Shown: one piece after another, positions 13,767-21,825 of the stretch
How positions within the stretch are numbered: position 1 is the first letter of the stretch
Layout of the letters: every line of letters starts with the position of its first letter
Origin: a virus
Strand: one strand, 5' to 3'
DNA length: 33,245 bases
Virus genome (UHGV): UHGV-0144531
Translations under genes and position numbers: made by a program
The notes under the pieces: generated by a model
Seen by the model: only the letters and a program-made list of their open reading frames with translations
What the model was told of the DNA's origin: nothing
Database searches by the model: none

Positions 13767-13978
13767 TGCAAGTTAAATGCTCATACTCAAGCAATGACAG
13801 TGTTTTCACGATTGGGAGTATTTATGACGTTCACATCGTTTATGGCAATGAAGCACACACAATGAGTAATTGCCTTGCCTTGATTGATAATCATGACGAA
13901 ATATGGGTATTCAGGCCGAGCTATGAAGGCGGTGAAATATCCGGTGTAGGTTTTGCTGCCAGCTTTGAACGTTATTAA
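13766..13978 (+). CDS. Small protein, paralog family member A (70 aa)
   Basis: Shares C.YS...F..G.IY.V and D..G..W.F motifs with the next three ORFs. Confidence 0.45.
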   Translation: MQVKCSYSSNDSVFTIGSIYDVHIVYGNEAHTMSNCLALIDNHDEIWVFRPSYEGGEISGVGFAASFERY

Positions 13979-13988
13979 AGGGGCAACA

Positions 13989-14246
13989 ATGAAACATTTA
14001 TATTTTGAGGTATTGCAGACGCGCGACCGCAATATTTTTGAAGAAGGGAAGATCTATTGCGGCGTTCAACTCCACGGCGCACCGGGCGGTGATGGTGCAA
14101 TGGCGATAACTGGCGATGATGATAAAGTTTATTTCGCTTATGTTAGCCATATCAATAACGCCGCTGGTTTGTATATTTATCGCATAGTGCATGATTTCCG
14201 TGAGATCGCGGAGTTTTGCGCCCGCGAAGGCAGTAAACCGGAATAA
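13989..14246 (+). CDS. Small protein, paralog family member B (85 aa)
   Basis: ATG 13989 with AAAGGGG RBS; FEEGKIYCGV and GDDDKVYFAY motifs. Confidence 0.45.
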   Translation: MKHLYFEVLQTRDRNIFEEGKIYCGVQLHGAPGGDGAMAITGDDDKVYFAYVSHINNAAGLYIYRIVHDFREIAEFCAREGSKPE

Positions 14247-16714: not shown

Positions 16715-16897
16715 ATGATTGAAGATGGTATATACGCCGTGAACCTCATTGATGAAATGTTTTACCGCGTGGAGGGTAATGATATTCGTATCAGTATCGA
16801 TGGTGGCGAGTGGAAAGAGCCATTCATGGATATGACGCGGGAAATAATTGAAATCATGCTTTATAACGGCGACGTGGTGAAGGTTAGCGACCTGTGA
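16715..16897 (+). CDS. Hypothetical protein (60 aa)
   Basis: ORF in co-directional string. Confidence 0.4.
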   Translation: MIEDGIYAVNLIDEMFYRVEGNDIRISIDGGEWKEPFMDMTREIIEIMLYNGDVVKVSDL

Positions 16898-17070
16898 ACG
16901 AGATCGAAGACGGCATCTATTTGCATAAGGTATTTAACATCGTCTATTTACTTAAAGGTAATAAGGTGATGATAAGACCTGATGACGATCCACATTGGGA
17001 ATCAAGCGACATGGATCGGTGGCATATGCAAATGTTGTTTGATAATGGCCTGATATACAAAACTGCGTAA
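16894..17070 (+). CDS. Hypothetical protein (58 aa, GTG start)
   Basis: GTG overlapping upstream stop; shows the same EDGIY / RISIDGGEW-like pattern as 16715-16897. Confidence 0.25.
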   Translation: MNEIEDGIYLHKVFNIVYLLKGNKVMIRPDDDPHWESSDMDRWHMQMLFDNGLIYKTA

Positions 17071-17378: not shown

Positions 17379-17867
17379 ATGATTAGCCAATCGCTGAAAA
17401 ACAAGATTGTTGCGGCGGCTGGTGGGGCGATCGCTATTGCGGCGGTGATGATAAAAGATCTTGAAGGCGTTGAGTATAAGCCATACAGAGATGTCATCGG
17501 TGTTTACACGATATGTTATGGACACGTCGGAAAAGACATCATGCTTGGTAAGACTTACACGCAATCAGAATGCGATGCTTTATTAAATAAAGATCTACAC
17601 AAGACCGCAAAAGCGATTGACCCATATATCAAAGTCGAAATATCAGATTTTACCCGCGCAGCACTTTATTCATTCGCCTATAACGTAGGCGCTACCAACT
17701 TCAAAACATCAACCTTACTAAAACTACTCAATGACGGCAAGAAATCAGAAGCGTGCGCACAGCTTAAACGCTGGGTATACGCTGGCGGTAAGAAGTGGCA
17801 AGGCCTGGTAAACCGCCGCGAGGTTGAATATGCCGTTTGCGAATGGGGGGAAACGTGGACAAGGTGA
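17379..17867 (+). CDS. SAR endolysin (T4-lysozyme-like muramidase with N-terminal signal-anchor-release domain)
   Basis: N-terminal Gly/Ala-rich weak TM ([16 protein letters not shown]) followed by catalytic E..D..T triad ([21 protein letters not shown]), as in P21 R and P1 Lyz. Confidence 0.85.
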
Positions 17868-18325
17868 AGGCGTTAATTATCGCCGCTGTTGTTTGCATTA
17901 TTGCCGGACTGACCGCCGTAACATGTTATTACCAGGGTGAGGCGGCAAGGTTACAGGAAGAAGTCACGGTAACGAAAGGCGCACTGAAAACGGCAAGTAA
18001 CACTATTCAGCAGATGAAGGAGCGAAACGCCGAACTGTCAAAACTTGATAAGAGGTATCACGATGAGATTAAAGCTATCAGATCTGACATTGCCGATCTG
18101 CGCACTGGCATTGATAACGGCACTATCAGGCTGCGCGTCAACGCAATACCCGTGCGAGTGTCCGACTCCGCCGAATCCGCCAGCCGCATTGATGGAGCCT
18201 CCTGTAGACTCACTCCCGACGCTGAATCGGCTTATCTATCCCTCAGAGAACAACTAAAAACGAAAGACGCTCAGATTACTGGTCTTCAGGACTACATCAA
18301 AACTCAGTGCTTACGCAAAGAATAA
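17843..18325 (+). CDS. Rz-like i-spanin
   Basis: N-terminal TM helix ([17 protein letters not shown]) then coiled-coil periplasmic domain; embedded Rz1 in +1 frame; start uncertain (ATG 17843 or GTG 17855). Confidence 0.65.
18063..18257 (+). CDS. Rz1-like o-spanin (outer-membrane lipoprotein) embedded in Rz
   Basis: Signal peptide with lipobox (LITALSGC), proline-rich mature region ([17 protein letters not shown]); entirely inside Rz in another frame. Confidence 0.65.
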   Translation: MRLKLSDLTLPICALALITALSGCASTQYPCECPTPPNPPAALMEPPVDSLPTLNRLIYPSENN

Positions 18326-18603
18326 CAGCGCGTGGACGTGTCGCCGTTTCTGCCAGCCAGCCATAACCAGGCCAATCCTTCCCGCGAGCGACGGCGGAAA
18401 TTCAAAAACACGTAATACCGGATCAACAGTCCCATTAACAGGTCAGGCGCTACCTGGGTAGAAGAAAGCGCCACCCACCTATTTTATAAAATTCTGAAAA
18501 CGGTACTCATGCAGCGCCGTTTTTAGTGTTTTATAGCTGTTTTCACTCCCTGCGGTGTCGAGTTTTGCGGGGGTTATATTTTTCAGAATAGGAGATTATT
18601 CTG

Positions 18604-19146
18604 ATGGCTAAGGCTAAAGGCATTAAGTTGCCTCACTTCAAGATCCCGCTTTTTGAGCATACCACTGTTTTCTTTTGCCCGACCCGCGAGATGTTCTATG
18701 AATTTTGCGAAAAGGCAGGAATTCCGATTGAACCTGATTTCGAGTTGGCTGGAGGATTAACGCTTACTTGCACTGGCGAGAATGGTGGTAACTTCTACGT
18801 GATCGCAGTATTCAACAATGAGTTGGGAACGCTGGTCCATGAATGCGCCCACACTACATTCCACGTTTTAAGTGATGTAGGCGTCGTGGCTACCACGGAT
18901 CCTACCCATCCGGCGAATGAGACTTACGCTTACATGGTAGACCGTATCTTCGATGCGTTTTTCCCTATCATAGCAGAATCAAACGAAGCACAGGTTGCAG
19001 CAATGCAGGCGGCAGAAGTCGTCGATCAGGCGCTGGAACAGGCAGAACAGCCGAAGGAAGAGGAAAAACCCGCGAAGAAAGGCAAACGTAAGCCCAAAGC
19101 AAAAGAAGCGTATGTGCCGCGCGTAATGAGCTTTAAACGAGGCTGA
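18604..19146 (+). CDS. Hypothetical protein with HExxH motif and Lys-rich C-terminal tail (180 aa)
   Basis: GTLVHECAHTTFH with Glu about 22 residues downstream (gluzincin-like spacing); tail EEEKPAKKGKRKPKAKE; GGAG RBS sits in the loop of a 7-bp hairpin (cagaata/tattctg). Confidence 0.55.
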   Translation: MAKAKGIKLPHFKIPLFEHTTVFFCPTREMFYEFCEKAGIPIEPDFELAGGLTLTCTGENGGNFYVIAVFNNELGTLVHECAHTTFHVLSDVGVVATTDPTHPANETYAYMVDRIFDAFFPIIAESNEAQVAAMQAAEVVDQALEQAEQPKEEEKPAKKGKRKPKAKEAYVPRVMSFKRG

Positions 19147-19148
19147 TT

Positions 19149-19238
19149 ATGGTTGCGTCAATATTAACGTTTATGGGTGGCGTGGCGTTCGGATTCATTA
19201 TTTGCCTGTTTATGGTGATTATGTCTATGCGAGGCTGA
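19149..19238 (+). CDS. Tiny hydrophobic peptide 1 (29 aa)
   Basis: MVASILTFMGGVAFGFIICLFMVIMSMRG; GAGG RBS; ATG overlaps upstream stop. Confidence 0.3.
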   Translation: MVASILTFMGGVAFGFIICLFMVIMSMRG

Positions 19239-19240
19239 TT

Positions 19241-19336
19241 ATGGACGCTTACATCATCGCCGGATTAATTGGTATTTCTGTATTTCTGGTGAGTTTTGTT
19301 ATTGCCGTACTGATAACCGTAAAAAGCAAGTATTAG
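19241..19336 (+). CDS. Tiny hydrophobic peptide 2 (31 aa)
   Basis: MDAYIIAGLIGISVFLVSFVIAVLITVKSKY; same cgaggctgattATGg junction as peptide 1. Confidence 0.3.
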   Translation: MDAYIIAGLIGISVFLVSFVIAVLITVKSKY

Positions 19337-19349
19337 ATGGGGTGGCAAG

Positions 19350-19424
19350 ATGATTGACCCGCTAATTATCCTTTCTGCCTGCGTCGCTGTATGGCTGGCG
19401 ATCATGATATTCATTGAAAGCTGA
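19350..19424 (+). CDS. Tiny hydrophobic peptide 3 (24 aa)
   Basis: MIDPLIILSACVAVWLAIMIFIES; G-rich RBS-like sequence upstream. Confidence 0.3.
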   Translation: MIDPLIILSACVAVWLAIMIFIES

Positions 19425-19517
19425 AGGTATTCACCATAAATATTTACGATCTCATCTGGTGGTCGTTGGTCGCCGTCATTATCTATTTCTGGTGGAAGAA
19501 TGTTGTATAGGTGAAGC

Positions 19518-19598
19518 ATGAACGCATACGAAATGCTATTGCTGGTGGCTGTTATTACAGTTATTGCCGTAGATGTTTATCGAGGGTTTAAAAGATGA
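19518..19598 (+). CDS. Tiny hydrophobic peptide 4 (26 aa)
   Basis: MNAYEMLLLVAVITVIAVDVYRGFKR; AGGTGA RBS. Confidence 0.3.
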   Translation: MNAYEMLLLVAVITVIAVDVYRGFKR

Positions 19599-19666
19599 GA
19601 GAAGCAGACTTCTTTTGCATGATTATAGTGATTGTCATCGTTGCGGTGCTTTTAAGTGTTAACTGA
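19595..19666 (+). CDS. Tiny hydrophobic peptide 5 (23 aa)
   Basis: MREADFFCMIIVIVIVAVLLSVN; ATGA overlap with peptide 4. Confidence 0.25.
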   Translation: MREADFFCMIIVIVIVAVLLSVN

Positions 19667-19683
19667 ATCGCAGGGGGTTAAAA

Positions 19684-19752
19684 ATGAAATGGCTTGATTT
19701 CTTTTTCCTGGTTGTCGCGATTGTTCTCACTATGGCGGCCTTGTCGCAGTAA
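19684..19752 (+). CDS. Tiny hydrophobic peptide 6 (22 aa)
   Basis: MKWLDFFFLVVAIVLTMAALSQ; strong AGGGGG RBS. Confidence 0.3.
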   Translation: MKWLDFFFLVVAIVLTMAALSQ

Positions 19753-19761
19753 GGCGAAAAG

Positions 19762-19848
19762 ATGAAAGAATTATTCGACTTTCTGGAAACAGCAACATAC
19801 TGCGCAACATTAATTGCGTGTTTATATATTCTGTGTAAATGGTTTTAA
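19762..19848 (+). CDS. Tiny hydrophobic peptide 7 (28 aa)
   Basis: MKELFDFLETATYCATLIACLYILCKWF; AAGG RBS. Confidence 0.3.
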   Translation: MKELFDFLETATYCATLIACLYILCKWF

Positions 19849-19858
19849 GAGGTGAAAT

Positions 19859-20344
19859 ATGGCCCGCACGAAAAAGGCAAAGGCTGAAGACAAAAAGCCA
19901 GCAGCCAAAAAGGTGGGCCGTCCACATGGCTATTCAGAAGAAAAGGCATTGGAGATCTGCGAGCTTGTGTCGGACGGCGAAAGCATTAACAAAATTTCGA
20001 AGATGCCTGGTATGCCTGCACGTTCAACAATCCTTAAGTGGTTCAGAGACGTGCCAGAGTTTTCGGACATGTATATGCGCGCGAAGGAGATCGGATTCGA
20101 GGTGTTAGCTGATGAGATCATCGACCTTGCTGACGCGCCAGAGAACATCAAAAAGGAAGAACTGAACAGACACCATTTGATGATTGAAACGCGCAAATGG
20201 CTATTGGCAAAACTGCAACCTCGTAAATATGGTGAACGCGTCACACAGGAAATCGTAGGCAACAGGGAAGAGTCGCCCGTACAGGTGGAAGTAACGAAAG
20301 AAGAAATTGCACGCATCGTTCAGGAAGTAGAAAACGAGGTGTAA
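19859..20344 (+). CDS. Terminase small subunit
   Basis: Basic N-terminus, HTH-like segment (GRPHGYSEEKALEICELVSDGESINKISK) and position directly upstream of the large terminase. Confidence 0.7.
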   Translation: MARTKKAKAEDKKPAAKKVGRPHGYSEEKALEICELVSDGESINKISKMPGMPARSTILKWFRDVPEFSDMYMRAKEIGFEVLADEIIDLADAPENIKKEELNRHHLMIETRKWLLAKLQPRKYGERVTQEIVGNREESPVQVEVTKEEIARIVQEVENEV

Positions 20345-20346
20345 TT

Positions 20347-21825
20347 ATGTTGACAATCAGAGAACGAATTATTCAGTCCAAATGTGAAAACGATGGCCTG
20401 TTTTTTAATCGCTACTTTTACAAGCAAGCGAACGGGACGAAGATGTTAATCTCAGGCCATCATTTAGCTATCCGCGACGCACTGCAACGCGTTATCAAAG
20501 GTGAGATAACCCGACTCATCATCAACATCCCCCCAGGGTACGGCAAAACCATGATCGCAACTATCAATATGATGGCGCGGTCACTCGCAATAAATCCCCG
20601 CACAAGATTCCTTCACGTTTCCTATTCCAACAACCTTGCGTTACTCAACTCCTCGACTGTAAGGAACATGATCTGTACGCCTGACTATCAGGCGATGTGG
20701 CCCATGAAGATCCGCAACGATGCCAACAGTAAATCGATGTGGTGGACTGAATACGGCGGCGGCGTGTATGCAACGTCATCACTTGGTCAGGTGACCGGGT
20801 TCCGTGCGGGGTACATGGAATCAGGATTTAATGGCGCGTTAATCATCGACGACCCATTAAAACCCGCTGACGCTTACTCTGACGTGGTGAGAAAGCAGGT
20901 GAACACCAACTATAACGATACGCTTGCATCGCGTCTGGCAGTGCAAACAACGCCTGTTATCGTCATCATGCAGCGCATCCACTACGATGATTTGTCCGGC
21001 TACCTGTTACGCGGCGGCAGTGGTGAAAAGTGGTATCACCTTAACCTGCCAGTGAAGATCGACAACAGCCTGGATTATTGGGATCTGTACCCTGAAAACG
21101 AGTTCGCCATTCCTATCGCTCACAACCTGCCGGACGGCTGGCTATGGCCTAAAAAACACAATGACACCCATGAAGCCGGACTGAAGGCGCACAGACGGTC
21201 ATTTGAAGCCCAGTACATGCAGCGCCCGCGTAAATTCGACGAAGAAGGCGCATTGTGGACTGAAGCAATGATAACCGCAGCACACCGAATGCAGATAACG
21301 CAGGAGAAAATCCGCACTGTGATAGCCATTGACCCGGCGACAACATCATCTGATGAGTCGGACGAAACGGGGATCATGGCATGTTCCGCTTATGGTGGTG
21401 GCAAGAATGCTCAGTATTCTGTTGATGGCGACTATTCAGGCCGTATGTCACCTAACGACTGGGCGCAGGCATCAATGAACGCCTACAACATCCATGAAGC
21501 TGACGCGATGGTTATCGAAACCAACCAGGGTGGTGATATGGCAGAGGCCACACTACGCAATGCCGGATTCAAAGGCCGCATTGTTAAGGTGCACGCAAGT
21601 AAAGGTAAATTCGCCCGCGCTGAACCAATATCGGCACTGTATGCACAAGGAAGGGTGGCACACACTGGTGAGCTATACACGCTGGAAAATCAAATGATGG
21701 AATACGTGCCAGCTACCGCCAAAAAATCCCCTGACCGTATGGACGCAATGGTATGGGGTATCACCGAACTAAGCCAGCCACAGGCAATGGGCCTTATGTT
21801 ACCTAAGCGCCTGCGCGGATTTTAA
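20347..21825 (+). CDS. Terminase large subunit
   Basis: 492 aa; Walker A-like PPGYGKT; acidic motifs in C-terminal nuclease region (AIDPA, ETNQGGDM); position. Confidence 0.9.
   Translation: MLTIRERIIQSKCENDGLFFNRYFYKQANGTKMLISGHHLAIRDALQRVIKGEITRLIINIPPGYGKTMIATINMMARSLAINPRTRFLHVSYSNNLALLNSSTVRNMICTPDYQAMWPMKIRNDANSKSMWWTEYGGGVYATSSLGQVTGFRAGYMESGFNGALIIDDPLKPADAYSDVVRKQVNTNYNDTLASRLAVQTTPVIVIMQRIHYDDLSGYLLRGGSGEKWYHLNLPVKIDNSLDYWDLYPENEFAIPIAHNLPDGWLWPKKHNDTHEAGLKAHRRSFEAQYMQRPRKFDEEGALWTEAMITAAHRMQITQEKIRTVIAIDPATTSSDESDETGIMACSAYGGGKNAQYSVDGDYSGRMSPNDWAQASMNAYNIHEADAMVIETNQGGDMAEATLRNAGFKGRIVKVHASKGKFARAEPISALYAQGRVAHTGELYTLENQMMEYVPATAKKSPDRMDAMVWGITELSQPQAMGLMLPKRLRGF

Follow-up and report, generated by a model that had tools for sequence, protein, structure and literature searches.

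The analysed stretch of DNA (33,245 nucleotides, in the following the window) carries at 18604..19146 (+) an open reading frame with an ATG start codon, which encodes a protein of 180 aa. As stated in the preliminary description, this protein contains the sequence LVHECAHTTFH, which spans residues 77-87, and its gene (in the following the HExxH gene) lies between the lysis and the packaging modules. The upstream lysis genes comprise a holin-like ORF, a lysozyme gene (17379-17867) and the gene for the Rz spanin (17837-18325, +). An ORF for a Rz1-like lipoprotein with the lipobox LSGCAS (18045-18257, +) lies out of frame inside Rz, which is the usual arrangement of embedded spanin genes. Downstream follow the genes for the small terminase (19859-20344), the large terminase (20347-21825) and the portal protein.

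The window derives from a mEp021-like (mEpimmI) coliphage or prophage, and its large terminase shares 98% identity with the mEp021 protein. The mEp021 counterpart of the HExxH gene is mEp021_49, which is annotated as "hypothetical protein". All seven phage records with a terminase that is at least 93% identical contain the gene, and it is core in this phage type, a group of coliphages that is prevalent in the gut. The gene was initially considered to occupy an insertion hot-spot between the lysis and terminase genes. Among P22-like phages the content of this slot indeed varies, with accessory and anti-defence genes in it, but in the phage type of the window the gene belongs to the core.

A terminator-like stem-loop, followed by a U-rich stretch, is located between Rz and the HExxH gene (18484..18536, +; −20.7 kcal/mol, z = −5.2), with an inverted repeat at 18485-18503 and 18517-18535. 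None of 200 shuffled sequences folded as stably as the region 18478-18545, and the mEp021 record annotates a terminator (TERM_6) at the homologous place. No sigma-70-like promoter was found in 18200-19900. With a terminator upstream and no promoter-like site, the HExxH gene is most simply part of an antiterminated late transcript together with the terminase genes. Membership in the late transcript points to a function in the lytic cycle rather than in lysogenic conversion. For the same two reasons, and because the gene is core in the phage type, we rejected its interpretation as a lysogenic-conversion "moron". In mEp021, 16 virion proteins were identified by mass spectrometry, and all but two of their genes are part of the structural cluster (PMC11893012). 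Since the two exceptions both lie upstream of the lysis genes, the product of gene 49 was apparently not detected in particles.

Directly at the start codon the RNA can form a hairpin (18583..18604, +) with the arms TCAGAATA (18583-18590) and TATTCTGA (18597-18604) and the loop GGAGAT, which includes the Shine-Dalgarno sequence GGAG (18591-18594). The last nucleotide of the 3′ arm is the A of the start codon. The preliminary description had placed the GGAG in the loop of a 7-bp hairpin before the ATG; position and loop are correct, but the stem consists of 8 perfect pairs, or 9 if a closing G·U pair is included. The hairpin has a calculated energy of −8.6 kcal/mol (z = −4.6), and not a single one of 200 shuffled sequences folded as well. 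Among 48 close relatives we found 13 distinct leader sequences, which represent roughly five types. The stem is kept in the window-type and the mEp021-type leaders, with one A-to-G change that results in a G·U pair. A third type has only a weak alternative fold, and two further types have no hairpin. The earlier suggestion that the hairpin may confer translational control is thus not supported, since three other leader types retain it at most as a vestige and no compensatory double changes occur among the leaders of the 48 relatives. Because of this variation among close relatives, we regard the hairpin as a local feature of some leaders and not as a conserved regulatory element.

Conservation and predicted structure of the protein

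The window protein matches phrog_1365 with E = 1.8e-31 (residues 1-131 against profile positions 3-124 of 127) and is a direct member of this PHROG, whose profile does not include the linker and tail described below. No function is assigned to phrog_1365, and there is no Pfam model for the family. Homologues in P22-like phages (Orf129 of phage L, p49 of ST64T, HkcC of HK620) are 37-47% identical. An exhaustive profile search over 1.84 billion representative proteins yielded at least 578 clusters (50% identity) at E ≤ 1e-3, mostly with 110-140 residues; both this number of clusters and the intact, invariant catalytic site favour experimental work on the family. A further search for homologues mostly gave near-identical copies from E. 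coli prophages and only two additional divergent sequences. Family members have 108-216 aa (median 125) and consist mostly of the stand-alone domain.

The family alignment (A5) comprises 125 diverse members with 20-61% identity to the window protein. The HECAH motif (18838..18852, +) is invariant in all of them and contains two predicted zinc ligands, H79 (18838-18840) and H83 (18850-18852), and the predicted general base E80 (18841-18843). It is followed by the block N105-E106-T-Y-A-Y110 (18916..18933, +), in which E106 (18919-18921), the predicted third zinc ligand, is invariant in 125/125 and Y110 is present in 123/125 members. This is the downstream Glu that had been noted before, with 22 residues between H83 and E106. 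H79, E80, H83 and E106 are the only invariant columns of the alignment, while G51, F70, T76, G93 and Y110 are conserved to at least 90%. In 111 of the 125 members 18-19 residues separate the second His from the Glu, and the 22 residues in the clade of the window are due to a short loop insertion. The residue directly before the Glu is Asn in 75 members. In gluzincins such as thermolysin and the M1 aminopeptidases, HExxH is followed about 18-20 residues downstream by a Glu, commonly as "NE". The spacing of 18-19 residues together with the frequent Asn before the Glu thus constitutes the classical gluzincin signature. It had been cautioned that a motif as short as HExxH may occur by coincidence; this concern is not borne out, since the tetrad forms the sole invariant positions in 125 divergent homologues, which excludes a chance motif.

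The third residue after the zinc-binding Glu is Cys in 96/125 members and Ala (A109) in the clade of the window. The Cys may serve in regulation or lie close to the metal, and would then have been lost in this clade.

Residues 1-125 (18604..18978, +) are predicted to form a zincin-like catalytic domain. A model of residues 1-131, calculated from the alignment of 125 sequences, reached a pLDDT of 93.7 and a pTM of 0.87. It shows strands at 11-13 and 21-25, a backing helix at 28-38, strands at 51-57 and 63-69, a helix at 74-91 that carries HExxH, and a helix at 103-130 that begins just ahead of E106. In this model the order of sheet, backing helix, active-site helix and glutamate helix is as expected of a zincin. 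The full-length model, which is based on 16 sequences, has a pLDDT of 76.5, with one long helix (104-147) and disorder from residue 152.

A search for zincin folds with Foldseek had been proposed as a check. The full-length model, with its long helix and disordered tail, gave no significant match against the PDB; the named matches obtained with folds and profiles are almost all zinc metallopeptidases, with weak scores. The family profile of 125 sequences retrieved only zinc metallopeptidases from the PDB sequences, with myroilysin as best match (E = 0.011, HExxH aligned to HExxH), followed by astacins and an aspzincin. The only match of a five-sequence profile against the same sequences was a spurious one to a gasdermin. 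In the viral structure library BFVD 28 matches were found at E ≤ 1e-3, few of them named, and all named matches at E ≤ 0.02 are "SprT-like", "SprT" or "Metalloprotease". Scans of the window protein against Pfam, NCBIfam and PADLOC gave no usable match and none at threshold; with PADLOC there were no matches for the window protein and two stray weak ones among the 125 members. Pfam SprT-like matches 18/125 members weakly (best E = 1e-4, below the gathering threshold). One homologue (P0118) is labelled "PolyVal Metallopeptidase superfamily domain" in its source (nr), and one automated annotation has already guessed "metallopeptidase".

The proposal of a minimal gluzincin-type peptidase is thus supported by the invariant tetrad, the gluzincin spacing and the predicted zincin topology, whereas fold and profile scores are weak. 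In our view the domain is quite probably a true zincin whose gluzincin-type active site is intact. The window protein would belong to an uncharacterised family of the known zincin superfamily and would not represent a new kind of system. It resembles the gluzincins of MEROPS clan MA(E) (thermolysin M4, M1 aminopeptidases, M3 oligopeptidases) in having HExxH on the predicted helix 74-91 and the Glu on the next helix. It differs from them by the small size of the domain (about 125 residues), which has no C-terminal subdomain past the Glu helix, and by the lack of any MEROPS or Pfam family model at threshold; its peptidase activity is putative. Minigluzincins and other minimal zincins (proabylysin/projannalysin; PDB 3e11, "predicted zincin-like metalloprotease") scored within the noise of the match list and show no sequence relationship; they are archaeal or bacterial proteins and not encoded by phage accessory genes.

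MPTase-PolyVal (PF18818) is also a phage- or plasmid-borne zincin with HExxH and a Glu on the next helix. None of the 125 members matches PF18818 at E ≤ 0.1, so that membership is supported only by the name given to P0118 in its source, and phrog_1365 proteins are small and stand alone instead of being part of a giant multidomain protein. The zincin domains of polyvalent proteins were proposed to act in host conflicts (Iyer et al. 2017, PMC5512222).

An acidic helical linker of variable length (residues 126-154; 18979..19065, +) connects the domain to the C-terminus, and the helix runs to residue 147 in the full-length model. It is followed by the basic patch KPAKKGKRKPKAK (residues 155-167) and the C-terminal motif EAYVPRVMSFKRG (residues 168-180), together encoded by 19066..19143 (+). 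This agrees with the Lys-rich disordered tail described before: pLDDT values are below 50 for residues 152-163 and 166-180. In close relatives the part past residue 125 comprises 55-69 residues and differs by insertion of an acidic repeat. Despite this variation of the linker, the basic patch (KKGKRKPKAK) and the C-terminal motif are near-invariant in 47 close relatives; the terminal motif of the clade is EALVPRVMSFKRG, of which EAYVPRVMSFKRG is the version in the window. The combination of acidic linker and Lys-rich tail is specific to the mEpimmI clade, and most family members are bare domains. Related E. coli prophages have a second type of tail, which is likewise Lys-rich, and Lys-rich extensions are also present on several other family members. 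Conservation of the tail despite the variation of the linker argues for a function of the tail, and most likely it binds a polyanionic partner, either nucleic acid or an acidic protein surface.

An alternative frame (18995-19126, +) is open over 43 codons across the region of the Lys-rich tail and encodes an Arg/Lys-rich sequence. In a single assembly a homologue (P0114) reads into this frame, probably due to a frameshift or a sequencing error.

Genomic neighbourhoods of related genes

In P22-like phages the usual gene order is Rz, a DUF2560 protein (Orf118, phrog_571), the family gene, a gene for Dec or a PF18894 protein, and the terminase genes. The DUF2560/phrog_571 protein (118 aa in phage L; L005:2641-2997 and 45 other loci) is the commonest immediate neighbour in these phages, and its gene directly adjoins the family gene in 42 of the 46 occurrences. 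No homologue of it is encoded beside the HExxH gene in the window. At 11 loci (e.g., L026:5379-6026) a gene for a PF18894 "putative phage metallopeptidase" (E = 1.3e-43; named "transposase" in PHROGs) lies directly downstream of the family gene, so that two HExxH proteins are encoded side by side ahead of the terminase genes. We rejected the PF18894 protein as a paralogue: hhalign gave a probability of 2% and aligned only 48 columns around the motif.

In P22 and HK620 the family gene is found in the immI region instead. The P22 record NC_002371.2 contains at 13861-14226 (+; L002:3001-3366) an intact, unannotated homologue of 121 codons with HECAH and NETY. It is located between sieA and orf59a/mnt, is the counterpart of hkcC in HK620 and overlaps with the promoter annotated for sieA on the opposite strand. 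Both paralogues, at different sites, are present in some phages, and one homologue (locus L006) lies in the early/recombination region. The family is present, unannotated or labelled "unknown", in the tractable model phages P22, L, HK620 and epsilon34.

Two distant loci that are related to each other (L008:3085-6004 and L104:2528-5004) carry the family gene at the end of an operon with two ParB_N genes and a gene for an ABC/STAND-like ATPase, upstream of the terminase genes. The operon in L008 also has a thioredoxin gene and a Tad2-like gene. This set of domains recalls the polyvalent proteins, but is split into separate genes, with ParB_N and ATPase encoded upstream of the family gene.

We looked up 11 distant contexts and found a named anti-defence gene within four genes in four of them. 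An Acb2/Tad1-type gene is located directly upstream of the family gene in L007 (−1) and four genes upstream in L105 (−4), and the Tad2-like gene of L008 is also directly upstream (−1). In L249 the family gene lies between the genes for the portal and a Mu-F-like head-morphogenesis protein, tad6 follows directly downstream (+1), and an AcrIF11-type gene is present on the same contig. Tad6 has been documented to inhibit ThsB of the Thoeris system (PMC13402655). We also applied sponge-gene profiles to 246 loci that span 5 kb on each side; matches within 2.5 kb occurred in 5 of 26 lineages, counted at 60% identity. These sponge genes lie mostly less than 700 bp upstream of the family gene and on the same strand. 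The remaining contexts contain packaging, lysis, antirepressor, HNH or recombination genes.

There is no anti-defence neighbour at the window copy, nor at most P22-like loci. A Pfam scan of 150 distinct neighbours at close P22-like loci revealed no recurrent anti-defence family, and co-location is therefore confined to a minority of lineages. In this minority the family gene can be found directly beside validated anti-Thoeris or anti-CBASS genes. These raw counts from a small sample are suggestive of accessory islands shared with counter-defence genes and, being guilt by association, of nothing more. The co-location could reflect only that accessory genes share the same hot-spots.

Possible functions of the HExxH protein

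With moderate confidence we regard the protein as an active zinc peptidase of the cytoplasm that works at a late stage of infection. The zinc ion would be coordinated by the two His residues of the active-site helix (H79 and H83) and by E106 of the following helix, with E80 as activator of the catalytic water. Transcription together with the late genes would occur by read-through of the terminator behind the lysis cassette, and the protein would have its role in a late phase of the lytic cycle, in the cytoplasm, as a stand-alone minimal gluzincin-type metallopeptidase that its Lys-rich tail may direct to a polyanionic partner. Zinc binding, peptidase activity, the function of the tail and the class of the target are what we infer here. 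Our best guess is that the target would be a host protein, possibly a component of defence or stress response, rather than a virion protein. This guess is based on where the relatives are located in other phages. A host-directed and possibly counter-defence role ranks first among the views on the target, and we put it forward tentatively.

For the family as a whole it appears rather doubtful that it represents an unrecognised class of proteolytic counter-defence zincins, which would cut a host immune or stress-response protein. In that case the genes would travel in accessory islands together with those for the inhibitors Acb2, Tad1, Tad2 and Tad6, and the basic tail of the clade would lead to nucleic-acid-bound targets. 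Counter-defence factors generally act early, and late expression is unusual for them. The late expression of the HExxH gene therefore counts against such a role. The known counter-defence proteins of phages are mostly binders, sponges or nucleotide-degrading enzymes, and we found no description of a small phage zincin as counter-defence protease in the literature. Neither did we find functional data on mEp021 gene 49, hkcC/Orf129, DUF2560 or phage proteases as anti-defence factors. Even without an immune role, "zincin-like metallopeptidase" is a usable annotation for a PHROG with no function and for hundreds of "hypothetical proteins".

The basic tail can also be seen in another context. A DNA-associated protease of the SprT/Wss1/Spartan kind would bind DNA by the Lys-rich tail and bring its zincin domain to DNA-bound proteins around genome packaging, such as host nucleoid proteins, nucleases or crosslinked proteins. 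No Pfam family other than SprT-like (PF10263) is matched by several members, and together with the named BFVD matches this constitutes a weak resemblance. The tail, which recalls the DNA-binding regions of these proteases, is conserved in the clade and has similar counterparts on other members, and the gene is located directly upstream of the terminase genes. However, the window protein itself has no SprT-like match, and even the best E value in the family stays below threshold. Spartan and Wss1 use a His as third zinc ligand, whereas phrog_1365 has an invariant Glu at this position. Furthermore, most members have no tail, which means that DNA targeting is not the general mechanism of the family, and no DNA-binding domain was detected. 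We consider this function unlikely.

The position of the gene in the late operon beside packaging and head genes would also fit a protease for virion assembly, which processes a head, scaffold or ejection protein and is brought to the procapsid by the tail. The homologue between portal and head-morphogenesis genes in L249 is in agreement with this, no conventional prohead protease is annotated in mEp021, and processing roles were proposed for phage zincin domains (Iyer et al. 2017, PMC5512222). Against this stand the absence of the protein from the 16 proteins detected in mEp021 virions, the location of homologues in other regions, namely early/recombination in L006 and immI in P22 and HK620, and the presence of two paralogues at different sites in some phages. 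In addition, the head assembly of P22 is not known to include a proteolytic maturation step. Altogether a role in assembly is quite improbable.

Two other functions have a very low probability. A protease of the ImmA/IrrE/CapP kind would cleave a repressor or an anti-sigma-like regulator of the phage, a rival prophage or a host system. Only one of the 125 members matches Peptidase_M78 (E = 0.099), and the window protein has no match to this model (ImmA/IrrE, COG2856). Nor is there an adjacent gene for an HTH repressor or another HTH partner in the window, where the neighbours are Rz upstream and mini-ORFs and terminase genes downstream. The same hot-spots often carry antirepressor genes, whose adjacency to family genes may therefore be incidental. 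The second of these functions is not proteolytic: the HExxH...E site would bind a metal for another hydrolase or an oxygenase reaction, or the protein would be a non-catalytic binder. The aKG-HExxH peptide hydroxylases (TIGR04267) were once mistaken for proteases, and 13/125 members match this family very weakly (best E = 0.0077); the weak fold matches to solved zincins point in the same direction. The TIGR04267 matches, however, stay far below the cut-off and span no more than the motif helix, in the window protein residues 76-100. A peptidase agrees with the invariance of the general-base Glu, with the gluzincin spacing and with the zincin topology. An invariant E80 is not expected of a pure binder. 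A chance occurrence of HExxH in an unrelated protein, as the shortness of the motif and the lack of a Pfam match for the window protein alone might suggest, can be dismissed, since this is refuted by the invariance of the motif and the downstream Glu.

Other small ORFs of the window

Upstream of the holin gene two small ORFs (16715-16897 and 16894-17070, both +) appear by eye to be tandem paralogues. Both have EDGIY near the N-terminus and share a similar C-terminal pattern.

The HExxH gene and the gene for the small terminase are separated by about 700 bp (19149-19848, +), which contain a chain of seven mini-ORFs with 22-31 codons (19149-19238, 19241-19336, 19350-19424, 19518-19598, 19595-19666, 19684-19752 and 19762-19848, all +), each of which corresponds to about a single hydrophobic transmembrane helix. 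The mEp021 record has no annotation in this region, and an Rfam search of 18300-19900 gave no match. Mini-ORFs are also present in the 47 close relatives examined, mostly 4-9 per locus, and their membership varies, with 40 different arrays in 48 sequences.

The first mini-ORF (29 codons, MVASILTFMGGVAFGFIICLFMVIMSMRG; window 19144-19243, +) shows 91-95% DNA identity to a segment in about 78 unrelated large phages of the rV5/FV3 type and others. The identity begins exactly at the TGATTATG stop/start junction and stops at the stop codon of the mini-ORF. It looks like a discrete mini-gene that is exchanged among unrelated phages. In phage FV3 the copy (L247:1201-1301) is unannotated and lies between two genes.
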